Of a stretch of 59,025 nt of DNA, positions 1 to 16,550 are shown piece after piece (within the stretch, counting starts at the first letter, position 1; every line of letters starts with the position of its first letter). Where the stretch lies: NCBI GenBank assembly GCA_964446685.1, contig CAYUPO010000002.1, positions 3,606 through 62,630 on the forward strand, read 5' to 3'. The notes beneath the pieces are model-generated. The model saw nothing but the letters and a program-made list of their open reading frames with translations. It did no database searches and had not been told where the DNA came from. Both the position numbers and the translations under genes were made by a program. This DNA is from an uncultured Gammaproteobacteria bacterium (GTDB taxonomy: Bacteria; Patescibacteriota; Microgenomatia; Daviesbacterales; UBA10151).

Positions 1-365
1 TAAAATTTTTGCTTATTCCTTTATTTATCGGCGTCTTTGCTTATACTTCAATAAACTCAGGTGTTGGAGAAGAAAAAGAGATTGAACAAACAATCAGTCT
101 GATTACCATGTTTTCAATTATCTTTGTTTTCATCGCCAAAAATATTAAATTTCGTTTACTTTCATTATTTGGAAATTATTCTTATGAAATATATTTATTG
201 CACTGGCCTTTGCTGGCTCAATATGATCTGTTTTACCGTTATTTACCTGCCGCAGCAGCGACTCTCTGTTATTTAGTCTATTTTCTGATTTTGGCTTTTA
301 TTTTAAGAAAAATAACGGATTTGATTTCATTTACGAAATACAAAAAGCTGGAGAAAACTAGTTAA
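1..365 (+). CDS. Acyltransferase family 3 (OafA/YrhL-like) membrane protein, 5'-truncated by window edge
   Basis: Frame open to the window edge; hydrophobic helices plus the family-typical C-terminal motif GNYSYEIYLLHWPLL; overlaps the convergent gene by 8 nt. Confidence 0.75.
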   Translation, partial: KFLLIPLFIGVFAYTSINSGVGEEKEIEQTISLITMFSIIFVFIAKNIKFRLLSLFGNYSYEIYLLHWPLLAQYDLFYRYLPAAAATLCYLVYFLILAFILRKITDLISFTKYKKLEKTS

Positions 366-1629
366 AAAAGGTATTTCTTAAATCACTCCAAAATGAATAA
401 AATGGACCCGGATTTTGTTTTTTTAAAGTAATATTTTCTCTTCCTTTTGGAGATTTAGAGATAGTAATTTTTTTATCATCATAGCCGGCTTTTTTAAAAG
501 TTACAGTCTGAAAACCATACAAAGGAACCAGATATTCCCCAGGTTCTGCATTGTACTGTTTATTATTTGCTTCGATCAAAACCCCATTAACTTTAAATCC
601 CAACTCATCCTGAATAGATCCATACAGCTGCATCGGCAAAAAATATTTAGTCAAAATAGAAACAGCTTTTTTAGGAGTATTATCATCATTCCAGATAGCG
701 GTACTGCCACCTTTATTTACCCAATAAGAAATACCATATAAATCTTTACTCTTGAGCAACTCACCCATCGCTTCATCAATCCACTCTGCCTGCTGAGTTT
801 CAGTCATTTCACCATTTAGATCCGGAATCGGCGCACCAAATTCACCTAAGACTATTTTAGCTTTTGTTTTTTCAGCTAATTGATTTACATCCCGAGCTAC
901 TCTTTTGGCTTCTCCTACATAATGATCGATCGTCACAAATCCACCAACTCCTTTGGCAGTTGCTTCATCCATGATCAGATCAGCCACATCTTTATTCATC
1001 GACATTAGAGAAGTATTAACAGTTTTACCAATCTGTGAAAATGCAGCCTGACTTTGAACATGCTGATCAATCAGAAATTTTCGGTACTCATCAACCTTAC
1101 CTGTCATTCTAGGATCTCCCTGAGCCCCATTCTCACATTCCGGACAACCTGTAAATGCATCACCATTTTCAAATAAATCCGGATGTTGTTTTATAAAAGT
1201 GGTTGTCTGAGCCAGATGCTGTTCAAAAGTCATTTTTTTATCATATCCAAACCAACCTTCCCAACTAGACCAATTACCCCTAAACCAAACTTTCAGATGA
1301 TTTTTTCGTGCTGCAACTACCCACTTTTTTAAAAATGGTAAGAATTCTTCATCATACGGTGATCCAATCCCAATATGCGTAGCACCTGTATCAGCAATAT
1401 TTTTTACCTGTGTTTCTATCTCTTTATCAAAAGATGGATCATTCAGTTTCTCTCTTGCCAAATCTCTTGATAATTTCATAGTATCAACCGAGCGAAATTG
1501 CCATGGAGTTAATGGCATCGTTTGATGGAAAAAACTTTTTGTTTGAAACCAAAAGAATAGTAAAGCTATAATGCTGATAAAGCTAATCACCAAAACCCAA
1601 AATAATAGATTTGGAATATAAATTTTCAT
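358..1629 (-). CDS. Membrane-anchored clan GH-A (GH5-like) glycoside hydrolase with C-terminal PEGA/carboxypeptidase-regulatory-like beta domain
   Basis: N-terminal TM helix; putative acid/base region CPECENG, TIDHY, nucleophile motif IVLGEFG; C-terminal LYGSIQD...VTFKKAGY. Confidence 0.65.
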   Translation of the reverse strand: MKIYIPNLLFWVLVISFISIIALLFFWFQTKSFFHQTMPLTPWQFRSVDTMKLSRDLAREKLNDPSFDKEIETQVKNIADTGATHIGIGSPYDEEFLPFLKKWVVAARKNHLKVWFRGNWSSWEGWFGYDKKMTFEQHLAQTTTFIKQHPDLFENGDAFTGCPECENGAQGDPRMTGKVDEYRKFLIDQHVQSQAAFSQIGKTVNTSLMSMNKDVADLIMDEATAKGVGGFVTIDHYVGEAKRVARDVNQLAEKTKAKIVLGEFGAPIPDLNGEMTETQQAEWIDEAMGELLKSKDLYGISYWVNKGGSTAIWNDDNTPKKAVSILTKYFLPMQLYGSIQDELGFKVNGVLIEANNKQYNAEPGEYLVPLYGFQTVTFKKAGYDDKKITISKSPKGRENITLKKQNPGPFYSFWSDLRNTFFN

Positions 1630-1667
1630 ACTAGCTCATTGTAACAGTACTTATATAAAGAATTAAA

Positions 1668-3296
1668 TTATTTTTGATTAACAAATATTGCCTCTGTATT
1701 AAGATCATTTAAAAACTCTTCTTTTAATTCATAAATATCTGCAAAAGGATATTTTGCAACCAGACGATATCTTGATAACCCATCACTATTTTTAATTAAT
1801 CTCCAAGTCGAATCATTATCATCGTAAGTTCTAGTCACAATCCATCTGGCCCATCTGTCTGGCGATCCGGTAGCAGCTTTCCAATATTCTCCGGTTCCTT
1901 CATGAATAAACCGATCCATCGGTAATCCAGATGAAAAAATGATTGCATCATGTGAAGCGGCGGAAATCAGAATAAATCCTTTTTGGCCAGTTGCATGTTC
2001 TTTAATATAACCTGATACTTCAGAAACATTTTTTTGACTTGAACCAACTCTAGCATCATCGATTGTAGCTGCGTCAAAACTATTAAACTGAAAAAAGGTA
2101 ACTAAAATTAATAATCCAATTAAAACAATTTTTAAATTATCCAGTTTGTGAACCAGGTAACCGGTAAATACTGCGATAAATGGCATTAACATGACTCCAT
2201 ATCGGACATTAAACCAGGTATCACCATTAATACCTTGAATAAACAAAACTGAAAACCCTAGATAAAGAGCTAAAATATTAAAAAATAAGGGGCCAAGCAA
2301 TGCAATTGAGGCAAGTTTGTTATTTAAACTGACTTTTTTATCTAACCAAAAAACTGCTCCTCCGAAGAAACTTAATAATGAAATGAAAGTATTGCTGTTA
2401 TAAAACAGAGCATAAAAATAGGTCTGAGTAGAAATCCACCAGTTATTCTTTGTAATTAAATTCCCCGCTTGATCAAGTTGTTGTTGTTGAGCATGAGCAG
2501 AATATGGACCGAGTGCAAAATAAAGTGCATCGCCAAAAATTAACTGATTCCACAAAAACCACAGAATTATTCCCAACCCACCTAAAGTACAAAATAAGAA
2601 AAATAGTCCCTCAGCCCCTTTGTATCCTTTTTTGCGATAACCATGAATAACAATTAAAATGGCTGTGATCAAAAATAAAAACCAACCATCATACCTGGTT
2701 AAAGTAGCCATCATTAGCCAAAAAGCAGTTTTTAATAAATCAATAATTCTCTGATTTTCAAACCAAAGAATTAAATAATAAGCACCAGCAGTCGATGTAG
2801 CAATTAGCAGCAACTCAGTCATTGCTGTTGATTGCAAATATAAAATATTTAAGTTTAAGGCAAATACTAAGACACCAATTATTCGACCCAAGAAAGATAC
2901 ATTGAGATGTTTTAATATCAGATAGATTAATACTCCAGTTGCCACATAAGAGATCATCGAAACAATCGCTCCTGAAAGTCCTGTATGCCACATGAAATCG
3001 TTCCAGATTGTCGGAATCATTAGAATATGATTAAGCGGTAACCAGACTGATCCAAGCTGTGCTAAACCGGGTTTTAATCCTTCAACAACCCGTCGACCAA
3101 TATCTAAATGGGATCTGGCATCGTTATATGCTAGAGCTAATCCATCTGAAATAAATACTAGAAAAAATGCTATTGATATTCCAGTCAGAAATAGAGTTAT
3201 AAATAACACAGCTTTTCGCTCAAAAAAATTAAATAAACTTTTTAGAATATTTGTTTTTAAAACAATCTCAATAGTTGTAAATTTTGATATATTCAT
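1668..3296 (-). CDS. GT-C fold (PMT/ArnT-like, GT39/GT83-like) polytopic membrane glycosyltransferase
   Basis: More than 10 TM segments; first external loop YNDARSHL with acidic residue; TRYDGW; soluble C-terminal domain. Confidence 0.7.
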   Translation of the reverse strand: MNISKFTTIEIVLKTNILKSLFNFFERKAVLFITLFLTGISIAFFLVFISDGLALAYNDARSHLDIGRRVVEGLKPGLAQLGSVWLPLNHILMIPTIWNDFMWHTGLSGAIVSMISYVATGVLIYLILKHLNVSFLGRIIGVLVFALNLNILYLQSTAMTELLLIATSTAGAYYLILWFENQRIIDLLKTAFWLMMATLTRYDGWFLFLITAILIVIHGYRKKGYKGAEGLFFLFCTLGGLGIILWFLWNQLIFGDALYFALGPYSAHAQQQQLDQAGNLITKNNWWISTQTYFYALFYNSNTFISLLSFFGGAVFWLDKKVSLNNKLASIALLGPLFFNILALYLGFSVLFIQGINGDTWFNVRYGVMLMPFIAVFTGYLVHKLDNLKIVLIGLLILVTFFQFNSFDAATIDDARVGSSQKNVSEVSGYIKEHATGQKGFILISAASHDAIIFSSGLPMDRFIHEGTGEYWKAATGSPDRWARWIVTRTYDDNDSTWRLIKNSDGLSRYRLVAKYPFADIYELKEEFLNDLNTEAIFVNQK

Positions 3297-4903
3297 TTGT
3301 TACTCCATTTCAACATCAACATTAAAGAAACAGACGGTATTAAAATGATCGCCACTAAAATATAAAGATATTCTTGAGCTGTAATATATTGATGAGCAAT
3401 TGTTTGAAAAACAAAAGATTTTGAATGATTACTGATCAAAAAATCCCAGTTTCTGGCATAGGTATATTTTTGAACCTGGCCCGAAAGTTTTTCCAGTTCC
3501 AAAACCTCAACCTGAGGAGGGTTTGCACTTGAAGTAATAGCCCCTAAAGTATTCACAAAAACTGAGTAAGAAAAGAAAATAAAAAATAAACCAAGAAACC
3601 ACCATTTTTTACGCCAGTAGGTGAGCAGCATACCGATAAAAATTGCTAAGATTGCATATGCTGGAGTAAGATACCTTGAACCAAAAGCCCATCCTCCCCA
3701 ATAATCCCCCCACATTGAATACAGGACTATATTAATCGCCATAACCGATACCAAAAGAGCCATATACATCATTTTTTTACGATAAGCGAGATACAACCCA
3801 ATAAAGCCAAATAAAATAACTGGACAATAATAAATAATTCCCCGATCAGGACTAATCCAGTGAATGTTAAATGCACTGAGCATACTTCTGGTACTAAAAA
3901 ATCCAGCCGCTGAACGACTTTGAGAAGAAGTGTTAGTAAATTTCTGTAAATCCGTAGTAGTATTTCCTTTTGGAACGGTTGGCTTTCCATTATTATCAAT
4001 TTCTTGTACTGAGGCCACAGTTCCGGCCAATTGAAAAGGACTACCATAAGAAACTTGATTAAACCAAAGCAAAAAAGCTAAAGGGAGGACTGCAGCAGCA
4101 AAGGTTAAGAAGCCTAAAATATTTACCTTTATACTCATTTGGTTATTGCTTTGGACAACTCTGATCAATCTTAATAATCCAAAAATACCTAATGGAAGCA
4201 TCATAAATAAATTTGGGTAATCCACCGAAAGAGATAAAGCCGCTAAAAACCAAACTCCAACCAAACTCCAAACAGTTTTAAATCGAACCAGAAAATACAA
4301 GCTCATTAGTAACAAAAAAATAGAAACATGATGTTGAAATAGCGATACAGCATAAACAAATGAGGGTGTCGCAAACAGAAAAGTTAAGGAAGCCAGTAGT
4401 CCGGCAGTTTTGCTACCTCCTAGCAATGACACAATTGATTTGATAAGAAAGGCATTTAATATTGCAAAAATCGCTATTACAGCATAGGCTCCCACCTGAG
4501 AAGCTCCTAATACCTTACCTAACAAATAACCTGGCAACACAACAAAAGAAACTCCTTGAGCAAACAGTGACACAAAGTTTCCATTTTTATATCCCAAGTC
4601 CGGTGTTGCAAAACGAGCCACTGGAACTGAAAAGTGGACACTCTTATCTTCGATCAGTGAATAGGTTAAAGCAAATCTTCCACGTTCTGGAGATAGTTCA
4701 AGGGGACCATTATCTTTCCATACCATCTGATTTAATTCATTTATATTTGGAACTCCAGGCAGACCTCGCAGTGTTAAACTCAAAATAACTACTAAAAAGA
4801 TCAGAAAGACACTATTTCCAATTAGATTACCAAAAAACCCCCATATTTTATGAGATGTAAAAGGTTGCATATTTTTTGTAATTTGATTTAATTTACTATT
4901 CAT
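3293..4903 (-). CDS. Second GT-C fold membrane glycosyltransferase
   Basis: Polytopic; loop acidic residues (ELSPE, TPDLG); SVDYP; late-loop motif WGGWAFGSRYLTP; 4-nt start/stop overlaps with both neighbours. Confidence 0.65.
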   Translation of the reverse strand: MNSKLNQITKNMQPFTSHKIWGFFGNLIGNSVFLIFLVVILSLTLRGLPGVPNINELNQMVWKDNGPLELSPERGRFALTYSLIEDKSVHFSVPVARFATPDLGYKNGNFVSLFAQGVSFVVLPGYLLGKVLGASQVGAYAVIAIFAILNAFLIKSIVSLLGGSKTAGLLASLTFLFATPSFVYAVSLFQHHVSIFLLLMSLYFLVRFKTVWSLVGVWFLAALSLSVDYPNLFMMLPLGIFGLLRLIRVVQSNNQMSIKVNILGFLTFAAAVLPLAFLLWFNQVSYGSPFQLAGTVASVQEIDNNGKPTVPKGNTTTDLQKFTNTSSQSRSAAGFFSTRSMLSAFNIHWISPDRGIIYYCPVILFGFIGLYLAYRKKMMYMALLVSVMAINIVLYSMWGDYWGGWAFGSRYLTPAYAILAIFIGMLLTYWRKKWWFLGLFFIFFSYSVFVNTLGAITSSANPPQVEVLELEKLSGQVQKYTYARNWDFLISNHSKSFVFQTIAHQYITAQEYLYILVAIILIPSVSLMLMLKWSNK

Positions 4904-5592
4904 AGTGATTTTTCCAAAACATGATTAAAAAAACCCATACGATGATGAATATATTTTCTAACAGAACTATTTTGTAATTTCTTTTTAAATTCAACATATT
5001 CTTTAAGCAAAAATTTATTCTTTTCTAAAGCTCGAAAAACTTTCATACTTCTAATATACCCCTTAAACCAGGGATCCACTAAAGTAATTTCAACATTTAT
5101 ATCATCCACTTTAAATACCCATTCCGCAAACATTTTTCTAATTTTTTCAGGCTCACCAAATAAGGCTACAAGTTGAGGAATAAATGTTTCGAATTCACTT
5201 GCTTTTGCTTCAACAAATAGATCTATATCACGTTCTCCCAACACTTTTAACTTCGCTGACCCCACAAAATTCACCTTCAACTCTGGCATCTTTTTTTGAA
5301 TTTGTGCTATTAGTTTATCCGCAATTTTTTGAAGATCATTTTTGTAGGGAACTATATGCACTTTTTTAGTTGCCGGAATAGCCAAAAGATAAATATAGTC
5401 TTTTGGTGTGGTGTAAAATAATTTTAATTCAGAAATTAACCAACTACCCCATTTTGTGATTACTTCAGCTATATCAGATAAAATCAAAAATTCTACCAGA
5501 ATTCCTAAAGCTACTATACACATTAAAAGCCAGATACTCACAGGAATCCATCCAGTTTTTATTAAAAAGTTATTTAACAATAAGTGAATCAT
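4900..5592 (-). CDS. GrpB/UPF0157-like nucleotidyltransferase-fold protein with N-terminal hydrophobic segment
   Basis: HIVPY...FVGSAKLKVLGERDIDLFV (GS + DxD); C-terminal EYVEFKKKL helix typical of GrpB. Confidence 0.65.
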   Translation of the reverse strand: MIHLLLNNFLIKTGWIPVSIWLLMCIVALGILVEFLILSDIAEVITKWGSWLISELKLFYTTPKDYIYLLAIPATKKVHIVPYKNDLQKIADKLIAQIQKKMPELKVNFVGSAKLKVLGERDIDLFVEAKASEFETFIPQLVALFGEPEKIRKMFAEWVFKVDDINVEITLVDPWFKGYIRSMKVFRALEKNKFLLKEYVEFKKKLQNSSVRKYIHHRMGFFNHVLEKSL

Positions 5593-7427
5593 TTAATTGT
5601 ATTAACCTCCAATCCAATTCTTTTTCTTAAATTTATATAAGAAATTGATGACAATAATGTAAACTGGATTTTTTCTTTCAACTTTAAAAGACCCATATAA
5701 AAACTCATCCAAAAAATACCCAGGGGTGACAACATTGCTTCAAATTGTTGCTGACTTATTAAATTTTCCATTGAAATTCGATTATTAAGAAACTTTGAGT
5801 CTTGCAACTTAAAAGCTCCTCCATCAACGGTAAAAGCATTTTTATAACCAGCCTTTTTAACAACTTCGATAATATTATTACTGTAGATTCCTCGTGGATA
5901 GGCAAAATATTTCAATTTAAATCCCAAACTTTTTTCAAGTTTTATCTTACTTATTAAAATTTCTTCCTTAAGCTCTGTTTGAGATAAAAGCCTTAGGTCT
6001 GAATGTGTTTTTGTATGATAGCCAATTTCCCAGCCCTCTTTTTTCAAAAATTTAATTTGTTTTGTGTTTAGTAAAGGTAACTGGTTATCCAGTTCAGATC
6101 TGTTAGCTTCAGCTGCGTTTCCAAGAACAAAAAGAGTAGCCGGTATTCGATACTTTTTTAATATTTTATGAACATCTGTTAAGTTATCCATGTACCCATC
6201 ATCAAAAGTAAGTGCAACACTATTTTTAATACTTTTTCCATTAACCAACTGATCCAATGAAACTAATTTATAATGTTCCATTAAGTACTGAATTTGTTTT
6301 AAAAATTGTTTTTTAGAAACGGAAAATCTCCAGTCTCCATCACTTACTGAGTGATAACACAAAACCACTGAGTTATTTTTACTATTCAAAACCTTAAACA
6401 ATTTATTTACCATATCAACTAAGTTCAAACCAAATAACATAAATCGTTCTGCAACAGAAATAGTTTTAGACTGATTTTTGATAAAAGAGGCCACAAAAAT
6501 TGTTAAAAAATCATAGCTTTCTTTATACTCCGCACTTTTGCTACTAGAAATAGCCATCATTTGAATCGAATAAAAAATAGCCAAAGCTAAGAACTTTTTT
6601 TCGGAGTAACCATTATTAAATTTATCCTCAAGAAAATTATTTAGCTCTTGCCGTAATTCAGCAAATCCTCCCTTAGCCACAATCGCCAAATCTGTTTCTT
6701 TTTCAGCCAAGACCATAACTTCTGGATCTAGAATAGTGAGAGTATTGTTTCGAACAATGATATTCTTCGAATGAATGTCTCTATGACTTAAAACAAATTC
6801 ACTTGAAAAAATGGTCGATAAATAGTTTAAATAAAATAAAAAACTTAATTTTAAATACATCAGTAGATTTTTAAAATCTTTAACTAAAGTGAATAAAAGA
6901 TACACCGGAAAAGTCAATATATTTTGTATTTGACTAATTTTAGGAAATTTTTCAATGATTGGTTTAGATGCGGTATTAGATAGAGTTTGGAAAAAAGAAA
7001 GTATTCGAGAAAAATGGTTAATTTTTTCATCAGCTTTTAAATTAAAAAGAGTCATACCGTGAATGTACTCACTAACATACCCAATTTGACCTTTATTATT
7101 TAATTCACTTAGGACTTGAGGGAACCTAATTTTAAATTGATTATTTTTTCCTACTAATAAATTCAATGCCTTTAAAATCACTATTTCTTGTCTAAGCTGA
7201 AAATATGTTATATCCTTCCATATATAATCCCATGTTTTAACTACAACTTTTTGTTTGTTTAAGGAATATAGTGCAACCAGTGGTTTTATATTAGATACAT
7301 CAGCCAATGGTTTAACAAATTTCATTTTTAATATTTGTTTTTTAAATATTTGATTTTTTCTCTTAAAAAAACCAATTTTTTTAATTAAAACCCCATATAT
7401 AATTTTTTGTATAGTTAGATAATTCAT
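5589..7427 (-). CDS. Fusion: APH/choline-kinase-like phosphotransferase + CE4 polysaccharide deacetylase (IcaB/PgaB-like)
   Basis: Kinase motifs VVVK, HRDIHSKN, DPE; deacetylase motifs LCYHSV, TFDDGY, HTKTH, FAYPRG in one ORF. Confidence 0.8.
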   Translation of the reverse strand: MNYLTIQKIIYGVLIKKIGFFKRKNQIFKKQILKMKFVKPLADVSNIKPLVALYSLNKQKVVVKTWDYIWKDITYFQLRQEIVILKALNLLVGKNNQFKIRFPQVLSELNNKGQIGYVSEYIHGMTLFNLKADEKINHFSRILSFFQTLSNTASKPIIEKFPKISQIQNILTFPVYLLFTLVKDFKNLLMYLKLSFLFYLNYLSTIFSSEFVLSHRDIHSKNIIVRNNTLTILDPEVMVLAEKETDLAIVAKGGFAELRQELNNFLEDKFNNGYSEKKFLALAIFYSIQMMAISSSKSAEYKESYDFLTIFVASFIKNQSKTISVAERFMLFGLNLVDMVNKLFKVLNSKNNSVVLCYHSVSDGDWRFSVSKKQFLKQIQYLMEHYKLVSLDQLVNGKSIKNSVALTFDDGYMDNLTDVHKILKKYRIPATLFVLGNAAEANRSELDNQLPLLNTKQIKFLKKEGWEIGYHTKTHSDLRLLSQTELKEEILISKIKLEKSLGFKLKYFAYPRGIYSNNIIEVVKKAGYKNAFTVDGGAFKLQDSKFLNNRISMENLISQQQFEAMLSPLGIFWMSFYMGLLKLKEKIQFTLLSSISYINLRKRIGLEVNTIK

Positions 7428-7430
7428 AGT

Positions 7431-8336
7431 TTAATTTTTGGTTGAGGTTGCTGTGAACCAAGTTAATTTATAATTTTTACTTATCAGTGAGAAAAATGGG
7501 CGGCAAAGAGAATTAATAAACACAATATATAGTGTTGGAACAGGATACTGGAATAACACTTTGATAATGGTATTGAAATAGAAATTTAATGGTCTTCTAT
7601 ATTCTTTTTCCACTAACCCTTTGAATCTTTTATTTAAACTCACTCTAACCGCTTCAGGATTTGATCGAAACACCTGTTTCAAATAATCGGACAATTTAGT
7701 CGGCAATCTGTAATACACTACTGAGTCACTTACATGAACAAATTTTCGCTTTTGCTTGAGACAACTGAAATAAATAAAATCATCTTCATTCATAACTTTT
7801 GGGAATTTTAAACTTTTAGCAAAACTTTTTCTCATCATCATACAAGCCCCAGTACATCCAAAAATATTATGACCGTTATTCATTTTCTTACGTGATTCAT
7901 CGAATACTAAGAATGTTGAATAGACTGCTTTTTCAAAAAAAGTTATTGGTTTTTTAGGTCTTGTATTTCCTCCTACTAAAGCCACATCTTCATTTTTAAA
8001 TGGTTTAACTAAGTTACTAATAACCTGATTGCTTTTTATTTCAATATCAGCATCTAACATTAAAATAAATTCACCTTCAGCTTGCTTAAATATCTGCCCC
8101 ATTCTCAGAGCTTTTCCTAGTCTTTTACCATCATCAATAACATTCACCAATTTACTTTTCACTTGACGAGCTTTTTCAGCAGTTTGATCATTACAACCAT
8201 CACAAGTTATTAAAATCTCTTTAAGTAACCAGCCTTCTGCTTTTTGTTTTAGAACAGCTTCGATTACTCTTTTAATTGTCTTTTCTTCATTGTAGGCTGA
8301 AATACCAACCGTAATAGTTACATTTTTATTGTTCAT
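7431..8336 (-). CDS. Glycosyltransferase family 2
   Basis: VGISAYNEE, DGCND, LDAD (DxD), EDD. Confidence 0.85.
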   Translation of the reverse strand: MNNKNVTITVGISAYNEEKTIKRVIEAVLKQKAEGWLLKEILITCDGCNDQTAEKARQVKSKLVNVIDDGKRLGKALRMGQIFKQAEGEFILMLDADIEIKSNQVISNLVKPFKNEDVALVGGNTRPKKPITFFEKAVYSTFLVFDESRKKMNNGHNIFGCTGACMMMRKSFAKSLKFPKVMNEDDFIYFSCLKQKRKFVHVSDSVVYYRLPTKLSDYLKQVFRSNPEAVRVSLNKRFKGLVEKEYRRPLNFYFNTIIKVLFQYPVPTLYIVFINSLCRPFFSLISKNYKLTWFTATSTKN

Positions 8337-8340
8337 ATAT

Positions 8341-10407
8341 TTATCTGGATGAAATTACTTTTGTAGTCGTTAATGTTTGCCACATTCCTTCTTTATTTAA
8401 CACATCATTTTGCGGAGCAATTCTGATAATTATGTTTAGAATTACAACCCCTAAACAAACTACTGGATTAAATAATCCCAGTCTAGCCAATTCTTTTAGT
8501 TTGGTTTTAGTTGGAATATGATGAGCCTTCAAACTTTCCGGCCCAAAATACTCAACAATATAATTTCGCTCATTAAGCACTCTTCTTCCATGAACTAAAT
8601 ACTCTCTAAAACTTTGAACTGGTTTAAAGTAAAAACAGGTATTTTTAGCAAATCTAAATCCATCAACTTTTTTTGCTGAAAAATAAAGATACTCTTCATC
8701 CGCAGTAATATTTACTGGATAGACTACTGTTTTAGCAAATGCTCCGTTAACCAACGTAGCTGATCCATACAAATTTGCAATATGATCACCTGAATTTAAA
8801 TCCTGACGCATTTCATTCCATAAAGCATAATTTTGATAGTAGAGTGTTTTAATAAATCCTTTAGGTTTAATTGGTATCAAATTACCACCTACCACCACAC
8901 CATTTTTCCCCATTGCCTTAACCATGATATTAATCTCCTCTTTTGTACCGAGTTTTACATCAGCATCCAAAGTAAGTAACAGCTTACTTTTATTTAACTG
9001 GTAAATTTGATTTAATCTTGATGCTTTACCCATTCTTTTCCCATCATGATGAAGTTTTATAATTGGATACTTTTTAACAAGCTTTTCCACTATTTTATTA
9101 GTACCATCAGTGCATCCATCTGTCACAATAATTATTTCTTCCAATTTATATGCAGTTTGTTTTTGATCAATCACGCCTTCGATAATATATTTAATATTAT
9201 TGGATTCGTTATAAGCTGGGATTCCAACACTAAGAGATGCAATTTTGTCAGTTTGCATTTGCTTTATTTCTTCTAATCCTTTTTTCACCATGTTAATTAC
9301 ATATTTGACCTCTTCTACTGTCATCCCAGCATGTAGAGGCAGTCTCAACAATCTTCCGGCAATACTCTCAGTTACAGGTAAATCTTCAGCTTTATATCCC
9401 ATTTTGCGTCCATATGGAGAGGAGTGAAGAGGAACATAGTGGAAAGTCGCACCTATTCCTTTCTCTTTAAGAAATTTCAGTAAAAAATTTCGATTCTCAT
9501 TATCAGATAATAAAATGTAAAAAATATGAGCGTTATGATTTGAGTATTTTGGCAAAGTTGGTAACTTAATTAATCTTTGATTTTGAAAGCTTTTTAGTAC
9601 GGTACTATATTTATTATAGATCGTCAAACGTTTTTTAATATTTTTACTTACATTCTCAAGCTGTGCATATAAAACAGCGGATAATAAATCCGAGGGAAGA
9701 ATACTGGAACCAATATCAACCCATGTATATTTATCAACTTGTCCGAGCATAAATTCAGTTCGATTAGTTCCTTTTTCGCGAATAATTTCTGCTCTACGAA
9801 TGACTTTTTCATCTTTTGTATTAATAAGTAACAGACCACCTTCACCCGATACTACATTTTTTGTTCCATGAAAACTTAAACATCCAAAATCCCCAATCGT
9901 TCCTAAGTATTTATTTTTATGCTTAGCCTCAATACATTGCGCTGCATCCTCAATAACTTTTAAGTTAAATTTTTTGGCTATTTTCATTATTCTGTCCATA
10001 TCACAAGCCACACCAGCATAATGAACGACCATGATTGCCTTCGTTTTCTTTGTGATTTTTCTTTCAATATCATCCGGATCAATATTTAATGTATCCTCTG
10101 TTACATCTACAAATACTGGTTTAACAAAATTAACCAATATTGCATTAACAGTTGAAGAAAAAGTAAACGAAGGAACCAAAATTTCATCATCTTGTTCTAA
10201 ATTAAGAAGTCTCACTGCAAACTCCAAAGCTGTTGTTGCAGAAGTTGTCATCAAAGCCCTTGCAACACCATACTTTTTTTCAAAATAATTATGAACTTTT
10301 TGAGTATATTCACCATCACCAGCAATATCCTTTTCGTTTTCAATAACATCTTGAAGATACTCCAGCTCCTTACCTGAATAGAATGGTTTTGTAAATTTAA
10401 TATTCAT
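8341..10407 (-). CDS. wecE: Fusion: dTDP-4-amino-4,6-dideoxygalactose transaminase (WecE/RffA, DegT family) + C-terminal GT2
   Basis: EDAAQ, PLP-lysine motif SFHGTKN, NAHIFY, FHYVPLH, RLLRLPL; then VGIPAYNE/DGCTD/LDAD; GGAGG Shine-Dalgarno upstream. Confidence 0.85.
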   Translation of the reverse strand: MNIKFTKPFYSGKELEYLQDVIENEKDIAGDGEYTQKVHNYFEKKYGVARALMTTSATTALEFAVRLLNLEQDDEILVPSFTFSSTVNAILVNFVKPVFVDVTEDTLNIDPDDIERKITKKTKAIMVVHYAGVACDMDRIMKIAKKFNLKVIEDAAQCIEAKHKNKYLGTIGDFGCLSFHGTKNVVSGEGGLLLINTKDEKVIRRAEIIREKGTNRTEFMLGQVDKYTWVDIGSSILPSDLLSAVLYAQLENVSKNIKKRLTIYNKYSTVLKSFQNQRLIKLPTLPKYSNHNAHIFYILLSDNENRNFLLKFLKEKGIGATFHYVPLHSSPYGRKMGYKAEDLPVTESIAGRLLRLPLHAGMTVEEVKYVINMVKKGLEEIKQMQTDKIASLSVGIPAYNESNNIKYIIEGVIDQKQTAYKLEEIIIVTDGCTDGTNKIVEKLVKKYPIIKLHHDGKRMGKASRLNQIYQLNKSKLLLTLDADVKLGTKEEINIMVKAMGKNGVVVGGNLIPIKPKGFIKTLYYQNYALWNEMRQDLNSGDHIANLYGSATLVNGAFAKTVVYPVNITADEEYLYFSAKKVDGFRFAKNTCFYFKPVQSFREYLVHGRRVLNERNYIVEYFGPESLKAHHIPTKTKLKELARLGLFNPVVCLGVVILNIIIRIAPQNDVLNKEGMWQTLTTTKVISSR

Positions 10408-11513
10408 TAGCTAATTCCTCCTTTGACATCATATAAAAAATCTTCGTAATCAGTGACTACTTTTTCCCACGTATACTTTCTAGCAATTCTTCGTAGAGAA
10501 ATACCTTTACTTATAGTTTTATTTTTATCAGCAGCTTTTAATAATAACTTGGAATATTCATTTACATCAAACATCGGAGCTTTATAAATTGAATCCTTCG
10601 GCAACCATTTCAAACTAGGAATATCAAAGGAAACAAGCAGTAAAGCTGCAGCCATTGCCTCTAATACAAAAAGAGAAAATCCCTCATGTCTTGATGGGAA
10701 AGCCACAAACAAAGCTTTCGATAACAAATCAAATTTCTTTTTTCCATAAGCTGGACCAACTATTTTAACTTTTGAATCCAAGTTTAATTCTTTAATAAGT
10801 TGGCGAATTTTTTCTTCATCTGGTCCTTTTCCAGCCAAGACTAATGGGAAATTTATTTGAGACTGAACCTTAGCATAAGAATGCAGTAACAAATCAATTC
10901 CTTTTTGCCCCATATCAAATCTTCCTAAAAATAAAATAAATTCCGGTTTATTTTTTTTAATTGCAAAATATTCATTACCAACACCTTCTGGGACAATTCT
11001 GGTTTTAATTTTTGGATTTGCTTCTTTAAATTTGGAATCAAAAATATCAGTGTAGGGTAAAGCATATTTGTAGATTTTCAAACCTACTTTTTCTACCAGA
11101 TTGAATGGAAGTTTATAAAGTTTGCTAAATCGATCAGCTTCAAAAGAAGTTGGAATAGCAACAACAGGAATCTTTGTCCACAATGGAGAAAATAGAGTCG
11201 AAATAGGAGCTGTGAAACATTCTAAAAAGACATCAGTTTTAATTGAGGGAACAACAAAAGGAAGTGAGAAAATATAAATTAAATTATTTAATCTAATATT
11301 TGGAGTTGAAATTCCAATATGTCGATAGTATAAGCCATTTTCCATCCGATCCTTATATTGTTGATACTTAGAACTAATAACCTGCACCGTGTGACCTTTT
11401 TTGGCCAAACGACTTCCAACTTCCAGAGTCGCCCTTGCTTGTCCGGCATTTAATAGCGGATTTTTGATATCATCAAAATCTAAAAAAGTAATATTTAATT
11501 TTGTGTTTTTCAT
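10407..11513 (-). CDS. Glycosyltransferase family 4
   Basis: FLGRFD..QKG, PSRHEGFSLFVLEAMA; start moved to ATG 11513 because GGAGG lies just upstream. Confidence 0.85.
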   Translation of the reverse strand: MKNTKLNITFLDFDDIKNPLLNAGQARATLEVGSRLAKKGHTVQVISSKYQQYKDRMENGLYYRHIGISTPNIRLNNLIYIFSLPFVVPSIKTDVFLECFTAPISTLFSPLWTKIPVVAIPTSFEADRFSKLYKLPFNLVEKVGLKIYKYALPYTDIFDSKFKEANPKIKTRIVPEGVGNEYFAIKKNKPEFILFLGRFDMGQKGIDLLLHSYAKVQSQINFPLVLAGKGPDEEKIRQLIKELNLDSKVKIVGPAYGKKKFDLLSKALFVAFPSRHEGFSLFVLEAMAAALLLVSFDIPSLKWLPKDSIYKAPMFDVNEYSKLLLKAADKNKTISKGISLRRIARKYTWEKVVTDYEDFLYDVKGGIS

Positions 11514-11570
11514 AATTGTATCCTCCAATACGGTATTATAGGACATAAATACCAAAAAAACTATAGGTAT

Positions 11571-14500
11571 TTATTTTACAGTACCCCAAACTACTTTCCG
11601 TATAAATTGAGTCTCTTTTTTACTTAAATTACGCTGAATAATATTTGCAAAATTATCTGCTGATATATCCCAATCAAACTTTTTAGCCCAGGACACTGAT
11701 TGTTTACTCATTTTATTACGCATTCTGGTATCTGAAATTAACAGCATCATTGTTTCAGAAAAACCATTTGTATCTCTTGGATTTACTAAGAATCCGGAAA
11801 ATTTATCAGAAACTGAATCCTTTAAACCATTTACATTAGAAGCTATCACAGGTGTTCCAACAGCATTGGCTTCTATGACTGTTATCCCCCAACCCTCTAA
11901 CATTGAAGGCTGGATAAAGACCCAATGCGATGACATTAAAATTATTTTTTCCTCATCACTAACTTTCCCAACAAACTCCACTTTTTCATTCAACTCCAAA
12001 GATGAAACCAAATTTTTAAGTGATTTGAGACTTTCACCAAATCCTGCGATTGTGAAACGAGCTTCAGGATATTTTTCACTAACCGTTTTAAAAGCCTTAA
12101 TTGCTATATCAATATTTTTGTATGTCTGTAAACGACCTAAATACAAAAAAGACGGATATGTTGTTTTATTTACTTTACTTAATTTCTTATGAGTAAATCC
12201 GGGATTAACTACCTGTATAGTATTTTCATTCCCTAATTTTATTTTAAGTATCTCTTTCTTCGATGATTCAGAAACTGTAATAACTGCCGATTTTTTATAC
12301 ACTAGCGGCATGATTACTGCCTCTAAAAACATTGCTATATAAGAGAATGGAAAAAGCAGCTGTCTTCTAAAAACTTCTTGATGAATATGATGAATTAGTA
12401 GATATTTAGGAATTCTAACAAATAGTGGAGTAAAAAACGGTAAACCGTTTTCTGAATCAATAACTACATCAAACAAACCTCTAAATCTCAAAACATAATA
12501 TACAGCCGCCCAAAAATAAACAGTGTAAAAACCTCCCCGTCTGACCATTTGAACACCGTCAATTACTTCATTTCGTGGATTTTTACTATCATTTCCGCAA
12601 AAGATTGTCACTCGGTGTCCTTGAGATACCCATCTTTTAGCTAGTTCATGAATATATACTTCAGCACCCCCAGCCCATACATGTTTTGTATCGCGCCAAT
12701 TAAAAATTAATATCCGTTGTCCATCAAAATTATCACTACTTTTAAAACTTTTTTTATAAAGAGGTTTAAATATCCCAATCAAATCAACCAGATTTTTTGA
12801 AACCAACCATAATGAGTTTCTAAAAATAAATAACACAGTCAGTAAAATTAGATTAATCGCACTTACCCCAAACATCACCATTATTACTTCTAATAAGTTT
12901 TGATGTAGAAGGCTGATTAGAACAATCTGACAAATTGAAACAATAAATCCAACGGTTACAAAAAAATAATTTTCCCTAGCTTGAAAATAAGAAACTATAG
13001 TTTGTGACATACTAAACATCAACATGGTTAGTAAATAGAATGGGAGATAACTCAATATGGCATATGCTTTATCTCCAAATAACATTGGCATCAAATAGTT
13101 GCCAAATAGTAGAAGTGGAGCAGCCGCGCAAAGAGTCATAATACAAGTCAGGGAAAATAGCCAGATAAATATTTTTTCACTATCTTTTTTGGCTCCCTGA
13201 CTATGTGCTACAAGTGGTAGCATTAATGTTCCTGTTAAAGTTCCAAAGAAAAAAACTATCTTTCCTGCCAAACTTAGAAGGGCATATTGACCAGCTTCTA
13301 CCGGATTCAAAAAATGCTTGACTAACACAATATCTAAGCCCAAAAATGCAATATTGGCTAATCCATATAAGACTGCAGAAAAATAAAATGAAGTATTAAA
13401 TTTTGCATCAGATGGTTCAACTTTAACTGAACTTTGTTTGAAAACGTAAATAAAACTAAGCAAAAGTGGCATAGCTGTAGATATTAAAATTGATAGATAA
13501 ACCAAATCATGACGACCTGACTGAATAATTATGAAGGCCAGCAGAAATTTCACTAAAGGTTCAAAAATCGCAATAATAGCTAACACTGCAAACGCCAATG
13601 TTCCTTTTAAATATCCACCATAGACAGCGCTACTTAAACTAATCAACCAAACAGGTGTAAAAAGTAAAAATAACCATATAGAATTAGTATTAAAAAAAGT
13701 CGGTAAATATGGAGTTAATAAAAGCCAGGTAACTGTTAACAAACCACCACCAATTAAAACTCTTTTCCATAAATGACTTAAATAACCCCTTGAAGCTTCC
13801 TGAGAATGTTTACCAAATAAATAGGCTACTTTTTGAGTGGTTGAGCTAGCCAGTGAATTGATCGGAATAGCTGATAAAAAAAGCAAACTACTAACTAAAG
13901 TTAAATTACCAAAATCTTCAACAGTTAAGACTCGCCCGAGATATGCATTGAAACCAAAGTTGATAAAGTTTGCAGTCGCATTTGCCAAAACAAATACAGA
14001 CCCAGCAAAAACTATCTTTTTATCTCCTATTAAATTTCGAATTTTATTTTTAAACTTTGATCCAAAATGAACATGCTCCCGTTGTTCAACACTTTCTATA
14101 GCAATTGGTGCAATATTTTCTTCAGCAATCAGATCTTTAACTTTTTCTAAATGAAGACCATGAATTGTTTTTTCCCAATAATGAGGCTTAACTATTAATT
14201 GATATAACGCCAAAAAGCCTGCCCAGGAAACTAGTAACCAATAAAATGGAACTAATAAAACATACTTTACCAGACTCCATTGTTCTCTCTTGGCCACCCC
14301 AATCATGTAATAGTACATGAAAAGAAAATTCCCAAAGACAAGTGATAAACCTGCCATATAAAAAATATAAACCGGATAAAGGGATTCAATTGCTGGACCA
14401 ACAATTGGTCTTAAAACAAAATACAAAATAGTCATCACCCATAGAAAAGGATTAATGAAAATAAAAGCAATCTTCCCACCCACAACCATCTGAAAAACTA

Positions 14501-16283
14501 AAGAATGCCAACCTTGTTTCTTTGCAGCTTCAATAGGATTTCGCATATGTACTAAATATGTCTGCATATATCCTTTTATCCATCTTGAACGCTGCCTGAT
14601 CCAATTTCTAACATTTGAATTCGCTTCTTCTAAAGTTGTTGAATCAATAATTGCTGTTTTATAGCCATGAAGGAAAAGCCTTAAACCTAAATCACAATCC
14701 TCTGTTACATTAAATGGATCCCACCCCTCCAAAGATCTTAATGTTTCAGTTTTAAAATGATTACTGGTTCCTCCTAAAGGAATTGTTGTCGCAATTGACT
14801 GTAGCCCTGTTAGAGTCACATCAAACCACAATGAATATTCCGCAGTAAAAAGTCGGGTTAATAAGTTTTGATACGGATTGTGATAATTAAGTTTCGCCTG
14901 CAAACAGATTACATTTGAATCAATCGTTTGAAATGCCGCAAACGCTTTCTTCAACTGCAGTGGATCCGGAATATCTTCAGCATCATAGATAACTAAATAC
15001 TCACCAGTTGCTTGAGTTAATCCATAATTACAAGCTTTTGGTTTTGTTTTAGGTTGTGAATCTGGAACTACTACTACTTTTACATAAGAAGGTAATTTTA
15101 AATTCTTAGCTGCAAGTTGTGTTTCTTGATCATCCTCTTCCAGTAATAACATTACCTCTAGCTTCTTTTTTGGCCAATCCATTTTTGAAATTGAATCTAA
15201 AAATATCGGCAGAACAGATGCTTCTTTATACAATGGACATAAAACAGTATAAATTGGTAAATCTTTATCTTTTATTTTTGATACTTCTGCAGTTGAAATA
15301 GTTATTTCTGGAGGGTTGTGTAAACTTTTATAAATTAGATAAAAATTAAATATAACGTCTACAAAATAAATAAATGACAGCACTGCTACCACCATTTGCA
15401 ATCCAAGTAAAAAATTCCAAATTAATATAGCAATCAAACTAACAGCCAAAAACCATAACCAAATTTTTTGATTAAAACTTAGTACTTTAATTGCAGATTT
15501 ATCTGAATGTAATGTTGTATGGGTTACATATTTTTTCTTGTTGTAGGCGACTCCAGCGTCTTTCATTTGTCTTTTTAAAGAATGGAGTGGATATACTTTT
15601 TGTGGTCTTAATTTATAAACTAGAGTTTGTGTACCGATTTCAAAGGAAGTTTTTAAGGTGTTTACTTTTGAAAGACCATTTTTTCTTGGGGCAAATTCAA
15701 TTTCAACTTCTCCAATTGAATGTCCAAGATCTGTAGCAGTGTGCAATAGAGGAACATCCAATGACCAGGCACTTATTTCTTTTTCATCAATTGCTTCAAT
15801 GATCTCTCTTTTGAATAATTTTAATCCAGATTGGACATCACAATTAAAATCAAAAAGCAGTTTACCAAATAAATATTTAAAACTATCGCTGACAAATTTT
15901 CTTAATTTTGTTCCACCGTATTTTTTCCGGCTTGCAACCACAACTCCATGCTCTCCAGCTTTTTCAAACATTTCAGGAATAGCTTCAGGTGGATACTGTA
16001 AATCCCCATCAATCATTACTAACGTATCTGCAGTAGAATAACGAACCCCTTCAATAATTGAAAAAGCTTTTCCTTTTTTACCTTGTTTTGTGTAGACCCG
16101 AACAGGGAAGTCTTTAGCCAGCTGATGGATCATATCAACGGTCGCATCAGTTGATTTATCATCAACAAAGATAATTTCATGCGTAATACCAGCTTGATTC
16201 AGCGAAGAATTAATTCTTCTGACCAAATCGTTAATATTTTCTGCTTCATTTTTTACCGGAACAATTACATCTAGGTATTTCAT
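11571..16283 (-). CDS. 1570-aa four-module fusion: DPM1-like GT2 + processive membrane GT2 synthase + Wzx/MOP-like flippase + GT4
   Basis: VDDKSTD/IDGDLQYPP; PLYKE, YDAED, TED, QRSRW, YWEKTIHG; ~12-TM block starting ANFINFGFNAYLGRVL; NWRD..AGGAE...EGWGITVIEA. Confidence 0.85.
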   Translation of the reverse strand: MKYLDVIVPVKNEAENINDLVRRINSSLNQAGITHEIIFVDDKSTDATVDMIHQLAKDFPVRVYTKQGKKGKAFSIIEGVRYSTADTLVMIDGDLQYPPEAIPEMFEKAGEHGVVVASRKKYGGTKLRKFVSDSFKYLFGKLLFDFNCDVQSGLKLFKREIIEAIDEKEISAWSLDVPLLHTATDLGHSIGEVEIEFAPRKNGLSKVNTLKTSFEIGTQTLVYKLRPQKVYPLHSLKRQMKDAGVAYNKKKYVTHTTLHSDKSAIKVLSFNQKIWLWFLAVSLIAILIWNFLLGLQMVVAVLSFIYFVDVIFNFYLIYKSLHNPPEITISTAEVSKIKDKDLPIYTVLCPLYKEASVLPIFLDSISKMDWPKKKLEVMLLLEEDDQETQLAAKNLKLPSYVKVVVVPDSQPKTKPKACNYGLTQATGEYLVIYDAEDIPDPLQLKKAFAAFQTIDSNVICLQAKLNYHNPYQNLLTRLFTAEYSLWFDVTLTGLQSIATTIPLGGTSNHFKTETLRSLEGWDPFNVTEDCDLGLRLFLHGYKTAIIDSTTLEEANSNVRNWIRQRSRWIKGYMQTYLVHMRNPIEAAKKQGWHSLVFQMVVGGKIAFIFINPFLWVMTILYFVLRPIVGPAIESLYPVYIFYMAGLSLVFGNFLFMYYYMIGVAKREQWSLVKYVLLVPFYWLLVSWAGFLALYQLIVKPHYWEKTIHGLHLEKVKDLIAEENIAPIAIESVEQREHVHFGSKFKNKIRNLIGDKKIVFAGSVFVLANATANFINFGFNAYLGRVLTVEDFGNLTLVSSLLFLSAIPINSLASSTTQKVAYLFGKHSQEASRGYLSHLWKRVLIGGGLLTVTWLLLTPYLPTFFNTNSIWLFLLFTPVWLISLSSAVYGGYLKGTLAFAVLAIIAIFEPLVKFLLAFIIIQSGRHDLVYLSILISTAMPLLLSFIYVFKQSSVKVEPSDAKFNTSFYFSAVLYGLANIAFLGLDIVLVKHFLNPVEAGQYALLSLAGKIVFFFGTLTGTLMLPLVAHSQGAKKDSEKIFIWLFSLTCIMTLCAAAPLLLFGNYLMPMLFGDKAYAILSYLPFYLLTMLMFSMSQTIVSYFQARENYFFVTVGFIVSICQIVLISLLHQNLLEVIMVMFGVSAINLILLTVLFIFRNSLWLVSKNLVDLIGIFKPLYKKSFKSSDNFDGQRILIFNWRDTKHVWAGGAEVYIHELAKRWVSQGHRVTIFCGNDSKNPRNEVIDGVQMVRRGGFYTVYFWAAVYYVLRFRGLFDVVIDSENGLPFFTPLFVRIPKYLLIHHIHQEVFRRQLLFPFSYIAMFLEAVIMPLVYKKSAVITVSESSKKEILKIKLGNENTIQVVNPGFTHKKLSKVNKTTYPSFLYLGRLQTYKNIDIAIKAFKTVSEKYPEARFTIAGFGESLKSLKNLVSSLELNEKVEFVGKVSDEEKIILMSSHWVFIQPSMLEGWGITVIEANAVGTPVIASNVNGLKDSVSDKFSGFLVNPRDTNGFSETMMLLISDTRMRNKMSKQSVSWAKKFDWDISADNFANIIQRNLSKKETQFIRKVVWGTVK

Positions 16284-16494: not shown

Positions 16495-16523
16495 TTGACT
16501 ATCGGCCTATATTGATTTACAAT
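16495..16523 (+). promoter_or_regulatory. sigma70-type promoter for sortase substrate/sortase pair
   Basis: TTGACT-17 nt-TACAAT. Confidence 0.7.
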
Positions 16524-16550
16524 TCGCCACACAGGAAAAACTATAAGCAT

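Follow-up and report, generated by a model that had tools for sequence, protein, structure and literature searches.

Why should a kinase be joined in a single polypeptide to a polysaccharide deacetylase of the CE4 type, and what could such a protein do? This question is raised by an open reading frame (ORF) at positions 5589..7427 (-) of a 59,025-nucleotide stretch of DNA, which we refer to as the window and which covers positions 3,606 to 62,630 of contig CAYUPO010000002.1 (NCBI GenBank assembly GCA_964446685.1; GTDB lineage Patescibacteriota, Microgenomatia, Daviesbacterales, UBA10151; source genome of 1.45 Mb in 64 contigs). An initial annotation, made from the letters of the window alone, had read its product as a kinase fused to a CE4 deacetylase. 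Here, we propose that the protein is a cytoplasmic, membrane-peripheral tailoring enzyme that would de-N-acetylate and phosphorylate a sugar of a membrane-bound glycan intermediate, a role that we regard as reasonably probable.

We could confirm that the ORF is read in one open frame without an internal stop and encodes 612 amino acids (P0001). All of the motifs that the initial annotation had reported as intact are present in the translation, i.e. VVVK (K64), HRDIHSKN (H215-N222) and DPE (D234-E236) in the kinase half and TFDDGY (D409, D410), HTKTH (H471, H475) and YP (Y510, P511) in the CE4 half. Among 5.8 billion protein clusters we found 14 full-length homologues with 30-47% identity and 87-97% coverage, each located on its own contig, in which the interdomain linker could be aligned as well. 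Together with the fusion protein they form a 15-sequence alignment (A1), in which the catalytic residues of the kinase half are conserved and the active-site residues of the CE4 half are invariant. A frameshift or a mis-assembly that joined two genes, which had been named as a finding that would refute the fusion, could be suspected from genomes that encode the kinase and the CE4 side by side as two proteins, with the order retained, as in L032, where the kinase gene precedes the CE4 gene and the two overlap end to start, and from the closest genome of the same genus, which carries a stand-alone CE4. However, the frame is unbroken, 27 further kinase-CE4 representatives exist beyond the first homologue set, both halves are covered in 16 of 79 related loci on contigs taken from one genome per species (a 17th is interrupted by a contig end), and the G+C content of the two halves is similarly low (0.265 and 0.292). 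Since full-length homologues occur on separate contigs and in separate genomes, and since the frame is continuous, we exclude an assembly or frameshift artefact and assign it a negligible probability. The loci that carry the fusion are titled Patescibacteria, Parcubacteria or Roizmanbacteria, and the closest CE4-only matches are titled Levybacteria or Levyibacteriota. Several third-party metagenome assemblies with the fusion (L048, L053-L056, L061, L082, L093, L094 and L096) bear the titles Gammaproteobacteria, Pseudomonadales, Bdellovibrionales or Rickettsiales, which are unverified labels and may be unreliable.

According to the alignment and the structural model, the protein, all parts of which are encoded on the (-) strand, begins with a helix of residues 5-22 (7362..7415; modelled as helix 6-21) with a conserved LT....I.GK pattern. 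It precedes the kinase fold of residues 23-320 (6468..7361), which was delimited by the model, by structural alignment and by Pfam matches of relatives; alignments of the model to solved kinases start at about residue 23-27, i.e. after this helix. On the fusion protein itself, the Pfam APH profile (PF01636) did not reach its cut-off of 23.2 bits (score 18.1) and matched residues 208-274 with its C-terminal part. Therefore, Pfam on the query alone does not establish a kinase, and further evidence was needed. Among the 15 aligned family members, 14 showed an APH match at E<=0.01 (best 2.5e-11), with weak Pkinase matches in six and Choline_kinase matches in four of them. Searching 1.84 billion representatives with the kinase half yielded 399 relatives at E<=1e-3, 163 of them at E<=1e-10. 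Invariant in A1 are K64, the ATP-binding lysine of strand beta-3 (7236..7238), E81, H215, D234 and E236, and the conservation of D217 and N222 reaches at least 90%. In a second alignment of 98 kinase sequences (A2), D234 was the sole invariant column, while E81, H215, D217 and N222 were again conserved to at least 90%. In the protein-kinase-like superfamily these positions correspond to the beta-3 lysine (K64), the helix-C glutamate (E81), the catalytic loop and the metal-binding aspartate (D234). The catalytic loop is thus H215-R-D217-x4-N222 (Brenner motif HxDxxxxN; 6762..6785), and D234-P-E236 (6720..6728) contains the DFG-equivalent aspartate in the D-[WF]-E motif of the APH and choline kinase family.

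An AlphaFold model of residues 1-345, built from the 98 sequences, reached a mean predicted local distance difference test (pLDDT) of 91.0 and a predicted template modelling score (pTM) of 0.89. From a structural comparison of this model with a set of about 48,000 solved chains, we considered the best 50 matches. The initial annotation had made its reading depend on the prediction of a kinase fold, and indeed the model aligned with APH(4)-Ia as top match (Z 19.8, root-mean-square deviation 3.7 over 272 residues). Among the matches listed, the best 47 (Z 19.8-13.4) all belong to the APH/choline-kinase-like group, including a type-II homoserine kinase (Z 18.8), APH(9) (17.7), LicA (17.2), the N-acetylhexosamine kinase NahK (16.1) and a glucosamine kinase (15.7), and sequence identity to solved members is 8-16%. 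WbdD, WaaP and Kdo kinase were not among these 50, which is uninformative either way. In the model, the hydrophobic stretch of residues 161-212 forms two helices (pLDDT above 90) that lie directly before the catalytic loop. This helical hairpin (residues 161-204, 6816..6947; helices 166-183 and 185-204, pLDDT 92-98) presumably is the equivalent of the APH insert helices that line the substrate pocket. From sequence conservation and model we conclude that the N-terminal half is predicted to be a kinase of the APH/choline-kinase fold, bilobal and with the helical substrate sub-domain typical of the small-molecule type, in which all catalytic residues are present.

We also considered that this half could be a protein kinase or a non-catalytic scaffold that regulates or recruits glycan machinery. 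The weak Pkinase matches in six of the 15 family members would fit, as would a few structural neighbours among those listed, namely YihE, LxmK and TvaE, which have peptide or protein substrates. A precedent for a scaffold is WbdD, whose non-catalytic C-terminal region recruits a glycosyltransferase (PMC3482155). In contrast, the conservation of all catalytic residues speaks against a pseudokinase, chains of the classical protein-kinase type (Bud32, a lanthipeptide kinase domain) first appeared at Z of about 11 compared with 19.8 for the top match of the APH/choline-kinase-like group, and repeated fusion of the kinase to enzymes of one sugar pathway (see below) fits a pathway enzyme better. We therefore consider a protein kinase or scaffold very improbable.

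The C-terminal half gave a clear profile match. Polysacc_deac_1 (PF01522) was detected at residues 398-530 (E 1.5e-29; 102.9 bits, cut-off 23.1) and was found in all 15 aligned homologues. When the full-length model was searched with Foldseek, the first match was PplD (6dq3; E 2.7e-13, TM score of 0.80 normalised to the target), followed by BA0330, IcaB (4wcj) and PgaB (3vus/4f9d), all in line with the (beta/alpha) barrel fold; the CE4 (NodB-homology) domain was thus assigned to residues 352-567 (5727..6374). In PplD, H105 is the catalytic histidine, D167 holds the water, D168, H223 and H227 bind Zn, and R302 substitutes for the missing MT3 arginine, deviations that are shared by PgaB and IcaB (PMC8807736). 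A HMMER alignment with the 6dq3 and related chains placed H359, D409, D410, H471, H475 and R550 of the fusion on PplD H105, D167, D168, H223, H227 and R302, respectively, and all six are invariant in A1. Accordingly, the metal triad corresponds to D410, H471 and H475, and D409 and H359 are the catalytic residues. The permuted order of PplD recurs as well, in that C-Y-H359 precedes TFDD and MT3 reads A-Y-P without arginine, with the late R550 in its place. The fusion scored far below the NCBIfam equivalog cut-offs for IcaB (TIGR03933; 69.8 vs 248.35 bits) and PgaB (TIGR03938; 65.4 vs 321.9 bits) and below that of the NodB model (49.7 bits, cut-off 240). An ArnD-named family was absent from the 14 NCBIfam matches at E<=0.1, a library that was not confirmed to hold an ArnD model. 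Judged by sequence and model, this half is an apparently intact CE4 of the PgaB/IcaB/PplD subtype and is not an IcaB or PgaB orthologue. It is followed by a moderately hydrophobic C-terminal helix (residues 568-604, 5616..5726) with conserved G570 and K584.

The company that the kinase keeps in other proteins points to the pathway in which it works. We performed Pfam scans of the 46 proteins of at least 480 amino acids among the best 150 kinase relatives. The most frequent architecture was kinase-CE4 (33 proteins). In addition, we found kinase-GT2 (three), kinase-GrpB-GT2 (one, P0091, from a metagenome), DegT-kinase-GT2 (one, P0075, 1007 amino acids, from a metagenome), GT4-kinase (two), kinase-GT4 (one), PIG-L-kinase (one, P0172) and tandem kinases (three), and one protein had no second domain that we could find. 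In P0172 (540 amino acids), a de-N-acetylase of the PIG-L/LmbE type acting on N-acetylglucosamine (GlcNAc) occupies residues 13-178 and a kinase residues of about 247-512, the latter matching the fusion kinase with an E value of 1.2e-11. By its domain content, P0172 appears to be an independent, non-homologous version of a deacetylase plus kinase. Since the kinase is repeatedly fused to enzymes of the pathway and since a second type of de-N-acetylase has converged on the same combination, de-N-acetylation and phosphorylation are likely to belong to one pathway step; the PIG-L-kinase convergence is the strongest argument that they are linked, and it suggests that their coupling is a recurring solution rather than an accident of a single lineage. 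The coupled deacetylation and phosphorylation of a sugar or polymer that the initial annotation had put forward has thus gained ground through recurrent fusions, through the genomic neighbours and repeated fusion or fission described below and through the PIG-L-kinase protein, with the coupling itself standing as a prediction from sequence comparison.

A further question is where and on what the two domains would act. Under our proposal, the fusion protein would not leave the cytoplasmic side and would probably be attached to the membrane surface. The CE4 domain would remove the N-acetyl group from an N-acetylhexosamine (HexNAc) of a membrane-associated intermediate, either linked to polyprenyl phosphate or nascent, and the kinase domain would phosphorylate a sugar hydroxyl on the same intermediate before flipping. 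The flipped product could then be used outside by enzymes of the GT-C type. We infer the cytoplasmic location of the CE4 domain, the nature of the substrate, the order of the steps and the use of one and the same molecule in both of them from the comparisons that follow.

Several findings weigh against this proposal. First, the fusion protein itself stays under the Pfam APH threshold. Second, the structural neighbours of the kinase half act on aminoglycosides, choline, homoserine, GlcNAc, glucosamine (GlcN), macrolides and peptides, with Z scores that differ by a few units; since neighbours with differing substrates score alike, the fold does not identify the acceptor of the kinase. Third, the model of the full-length protein (pLDDT 86.9) has a pTM of 0.58, which leaves the mutual orientation of the kinase and CE4 domains undefined. 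Fourth, eight of the 20 kinase loci of other genomes considered below were without CE4 in the DNA fetched, so that the kinase is not strictly dependent on this CE4. The remaining points concern topology, which was assessed by simple hydropathy scales, taking as measure the Kyte-Doolittle mean (KD) in a 19-residue window with a threshold of 1.6. At least one window with KD >=1.6 was present in seven of the 15 fusion homologues, at three differing positions. A CE4-GT4 fusion in L031 has a helix with KD 1.73 after the CE4 domain, and stand-alone CE4 homologues start with a moderately hydrophobic helix (KD 1.45 in that of the same-genus genome G002). Finally, PplD, IcaB and PgaB act outside the cytoplasm, and PplD has an N-terminal transmembrane helix (PMC8807736).

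These last observations would fit a split topology, in which the kinase faces the cytoplasm, the membrane is crossed by the linker helix and, in the CE4-GT4 proteins, by the helix after the CE4 domain as well, and the CE4 domain works outside on an exported polymer; domains on opposite sides of the membrane had been the alternative raised by the initial annotation. The characterised close relatives of the CE4 domain are all extracytoplasmic, as described for PplD and its relatives (PMC8807736). In the fusion, a moderately hydrophobic helix borders the CE4 domain on either side. These helices exceed the threshold in some homologues, i.e. in the linker of P0003 and P0007 and in the C-terminal helix of P0010, P0012, P0013 and L031; if both of them spanned the membrane, kinase-CE4 and CE4-GT4 proteins would be topologically consistent. 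However, the fusion protein itself has no window >=1.6, its highest value being 1.43 within the hairpin; this is the central hydrophobic stretch (residues 161-212) that had been noted before, correctly, together with the lack of a clear signal peptide. No such window occurs in eight of the 15 homologues either, and the true membrane helices of neighbouring cluster proteins reach 2.2-2.66. The linker helix (residues 325-345, 6393..6455), in which E327 is at least 90% conserved, bears D, K, K, N and N and has a KD of 1.32, its hydrophobic moment (0.47-0.53) is the highest in the protein (mean 0.22, standard deviation 0.11), as expected for an amphipathic helix, and it is missing in homologue P0015. 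The C-terminal helix (KD 1.30 in the fusion) is polar or short in several homologues; it is polar in P0003, P0004 and P0005, all of which stop shortly behind it, P0003 and P0004 about eight residues past its conserved lysine. In three genomes (L011, L012 and L031), this type of CE4 is joined to GT4 domains, which are cytoplasmic and depend on nucleotide sugars, and the flanking helices there show KD values of 0.71-1.56 with several charges in L011 and L012 and of 1.46 and 1.73 in L031. Moreover, the analogous fusion P0172 employs PIG-L, a family of enzymes of the cytoplasmic face. The Wimley-White octanol scale was dropped, since the value of a soluble GT4 (-8.6) overlapped with those of true membrane helices (-8 to -20).

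By hydropathy, then, the fusion lacks the extracytoplasmic signal or anchor of the PgaB/IcaB/PplD subtype, and because the N-terminal kinase requires ATP, we place the start of the protein in the cytoplasm. We favour a placement of CE4 and kinase in one compartment, the cytoplasm, where the amphipathic helices could hold the enzyme at the membrane surface, and we regard domains on opposite sides of the membrane as distinctly improbable, so that this part of the earlier interpretation was not upheld.

The proposed role as a tailoring enzyme is embedded in the gene cluster around the fusion. The fusion is the fifth gene of a tightly packed (-) operon, which starts with a giant protein of 1570 amino acids (11571..16283, (-)). 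Its profiles indicate two GT2 domains, one of the polyprenyl-phosphate type (ArnC/PgfS-like) and one resembling a synthase, which are followed by a flippase-like membrane region and by a GT4, and the flippase (Polysacc_synt) assignment rests on a split homologue in L011. Then follow a GT4 glycosyltransferase of 382 amino acids (10407..11555, (-); Pfam), a WecE-type sugar aminotransferase joined to a GT2 (8341..10407, (-); 688 amino acids), which matched the model for dTDP-4-amino-4,6-dideoxygalactose transaminase with 518.1 bits (cut-off 375), and a GT2 of 301 amino acids directly upstream of the fusion (7431..8336, (-); PF00535, 2.6e-25). The WecE-type aminotransferase implies, as far as its family assignment holds, a 4-amino-6-deoxy sugar in the product of the cluster. 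Downstream of the fusion lies a GrpB-family gene (4900..5592, (-); 230 amino acids; PF04229, 1.9e-6), whose product has an N-terminal membrane anchor (residues 15-33, KD 2.49). The ATG of the fusion lies 3 nucleotides past the stop of the upstream GT2, and its own stop overlaps the start of GrpB (ATGA), from which GrpB appears to be translationally coupled to the fusion gene. The end of the cluster is formed by two multi-pass membrane proteins resembling GT-C enzymes in profiles and hydropathy (3293-4903 and 1668-3296, both (-)), with weak matches to the putative glycosyltransferase family LA_3751/LA_3752, a PMT_2 match in one homologue and many hydrophobic segments, and by an anchored protein of 423 amino acids (358-1629, (-)). 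This cluster end is conserved in related loci. We found no sign of an antibiotic-resistance role in this genomic context.

The question of how tightly kinase and CE4 are bound to this cluster, and to each other, was addressed by comparison across the class. Of 401 genomes that represent the class, 21 (this one included) have the kinase, and the other 29 genomes from the same family all lack it. Genomes of the same genus carry CE4 only, and the closest one (G002) has a stand-alone CE4 of 260 amino acids at the same position in a syntenic cluster. We scanned up to about 8 kb per side of 19 further kinase matches, as well as three earlier loci, with hidden Markov models of the two halves and with the cluster proteins of the window. 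A homologue of the giant protein was found in all 20 kinase loci of other genomes, accompanied by the GT-C pair in the longer stretches. CE4 is fused to the kinase in three of these 20 loci (L027, L028 and L038) and encoded as a separate gene within the fetched DNA (+/-8 kb) in nine; in L011 and L031 it is joined to GT4 rather than to the kinase. Of the eight kinase loci without CE4, three are interrupted by a contig end, and L033 and L034 are whole contigs from the giant gene on. The kinase can also be part of the giant synthase protein itself, as in L044 (7830-13337, (-)), where it forms the C-terminal domain (residues of about 1608-1813) of a protein of 1836 amino acids.

Kinase-CE4 fusion or fission happened more than once: a maximum-likelihood tree of 56 CE4 domains and three outgroups cannot be explained with fewer than three switches between the fused and the unfused state, and the starred branches also force three, in a tree in which 23 of 55 inner branches are open, the backbone is poorly resolved and unfused representatives come only from loci fetched for other reasons. 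Throughout the class (L011-L013, L026-L044), one end of the cluster is occupied by the giant protein (divided into two proteins in L011 and L031) and the other by the GT-C pair with the anchored protein of about 420 amino acids, with a variable set of 1-6 GT2, GT4, DegT, kinase, CE4 and GrpB genes in between, a layout that resembles a serotype-like variable region. The G+C content of the cluster (358-16283) is 0.322, with the fusion gene being lowest, vs 0.389 in the housekeeping remainder of the window (16284-59025). This low G+C content, together with the absence of the kinase from genomes of the same family, suggests an exchange of the variable region between lineages. From this distribution, the kinase appears to be an optional module of a class-conserved glycan-assembly cluster, most often fused to a de-N-acetylase.

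The cluster also invites an explanation in which the two domains supply a soluble precursor, with the kinase acting, at the anomeric or another position, on a free amino sugar, the CE4 domain de-acetylating a free sugar or sugar phosphate, and GrpB and the GT2 enzymes activating and transferring the product. NahK, AmgK and glucosamine kinase are APH-family enzymes that act on free sugars, and two of them are among the structural neighbours of the kinase half (NahK, Z 16.1; glucosamine kinase, Z 15.7). GrpB, which has a nucleotidyltransferase fold, is predicted to be translationally coupled to the fusion; in L034 (2877-4334; 486 amino acids) it forms one protein with the kinase and in L041 (8737-9303) it lies next to it, and the kinase-GrpB-GT2 and DegT-kinase-GT2 proteins look like a precursor line; in addition, the small genomes of Patescibacteria are thought to depend on scavenging. 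In contrast, this subtype of CE4 acts on polymers or linkage units and not on free sugars, a distribution of 21 carriers among 401 class genomes, with none among the 29 others of the same family, marks the kinase as accessory rather than as core supply, and NahK and glucosamine kinase score no higher than aminoglycoside and choline kinases. Known members of the GrpB fold add nucleotides to hydroxyls and do not make nucleoside diphosphate sugars, and GrpB is membrane-anchored here. We consider the soluble route possible but unlikely, and continue to prefer tailoring of a membrane-bound intermediate.

Parts of this picture are known from other systems. In E. coli O9a, WbdD first phosphorylates and subsequently methylates the terminus of the polyprenol-linked O antigen (PMC3482155), and a methyltransferase-kinase module is contained in a multi-glycosyltransferase protein of K. 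pneumoniae O7 (PMC11231755). As far as these accounts describe them, both share with the fusion that they are two-domain units encoded in glycan clusters, combine a kinase with a second modification, and are modules that can be fused to glycosyltransferases. They are cytoplasmic and associated with the membrane, and their eukaryotic-like kinase domain phosphorylates a sugar of a glycan linked to polyprenol, as we propose for the fusion. Unlike in WbdD and the O7 module, the partner domain of the fusion is a CE4 de-N-acetylase and not a methyltransferase. It also differs from WbdD in that its kinase groups with APH/choline kinases, that no long coiled-coil ruler is evident in it (no coiled-coil analysis was made), and that it belongs to a flippase/GT-C cluster of a monoderm-like Patescibacterium, whereas WbdD belongs to an ABC-transporter O-antigen system. 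With APH, choline and ethanolamine kinases it has in common the fold, the beta-3 lysine, the helix-C glutamate, the HxDxxxxN motif and the D-x-E metal site, but it adds the conserved N-terminal helix and the hydrophobic helical hairpin.

For the CE4 domain, PplD, IcaB and PgaB provide the best structure and sequence matches and the same active-site set; in contrast to these enzymes, which work on exported polymers after secretion or from an anchor outside the membrane, the fusion has no signal peptide, and its CE4 domain follows a kinase. A de-acylase of the NodB fold on the cytoplasmic side has precedents in ArnD and NodB, of which ArnD is a membrane-associated NodB-type esterase (PMC10967932), although neither of them is known to be fused to a kinase and, among the 14 NCBIfam matches of the fusion, none reached the level of NodB or bore the name of ArnD. 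The initial annotation had pointed out that IcaB, PgaB and PelA, the known CE4 partners of synthases, are not kinase fusions, which agrees with general knowledge and with a 2024 review of NodB architectures, in which the word 'kinase' occurs 0 times. In the Arn pathway, an aminotransferase, a GT2 acting on undecaprenyl phosphate, a de-acylase, a flippase and a GT-C transferase follow each other. The gene content of the cluster, with a WecE-type aminotransferase-GT2, an ArnC-like GT2 and GT-C-like proteins, may parallel this order and offers a lead by analogy.

We found no description of a kinase-CE4 fusion or of this cluster in the main texts of open-access papers and bioRxiv preprints, and the related database proteins are without names. 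Already known are the component families and, as a concept, the bifunctional cytoplasmic glycan-tailoring enzyme, for example WbdD. New are the combination of kinase and CE4, the apparent cytoplasmic location of a CE4 of the PgaB/IcaB type and the link to a class-wide cluster of Patescibacteria. These bacteria (candidate phyla radiation, CPR), which have an attached lifestyle on other microbes, represent a large share of bacterial diversity, and their surface glycans are essentially unknown; the fusion marks a variable tailoring step in a class-conserved cluster that encodes a giant synthase of four modules, a flippase and GT-C enzymes. If both activities act on one intermediate, the fusion would represent the first CE4 of the PgaB/IcaB type that works on the cytoplasmic side and a new kind of bifunctional glycan-modifying enzyme, and a single soluble protein of 612 amino acids would provide a tractable biochemical entry to an uncultured system.

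A more specific version of the proposal is that phosphorylation is gated by de-acetylation. In that case, the CE4 domain would unmask the amine on a lipid-linked HexNAc, the kinase, which is related to enzymes that bind amino sugars, would phosphorylate only the unmasked amino sugar, and the zwitterionic phospho-amino sugar would signal chain termination or flipping and export. We consider such gating a speculative and quite doubtful refinement. If true, a terminator in the manner of WbdD would have been assembled here from other parts, for a Patescibacteria-specific surface glycan or glycolipid, and it would give a first handle on the product of the giant-synthase/GT-C cluster in these episymbiotic bacteria.

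Outside the operon, two further features of the window were recorded. Two sortase genes are present, one in the region 16512-17736 (+) and one at 28895-29536 (-). The first of them overlaps the end of a gene for a secreted-looking Gly/Ser-rich protein of 219 amino acids with a C-terminal hydrophobic tail, which, located beside the glycan cluster, is a possible candidate for a sortase substrate. In addition, a homologue of tRNA-guanine transglycosylase (19856-21307, (-); 483 amino acids) showed a two-part Pfam match with its best stretch starting at residue 196, so that it carries an unusual N-terminal part or an insert.

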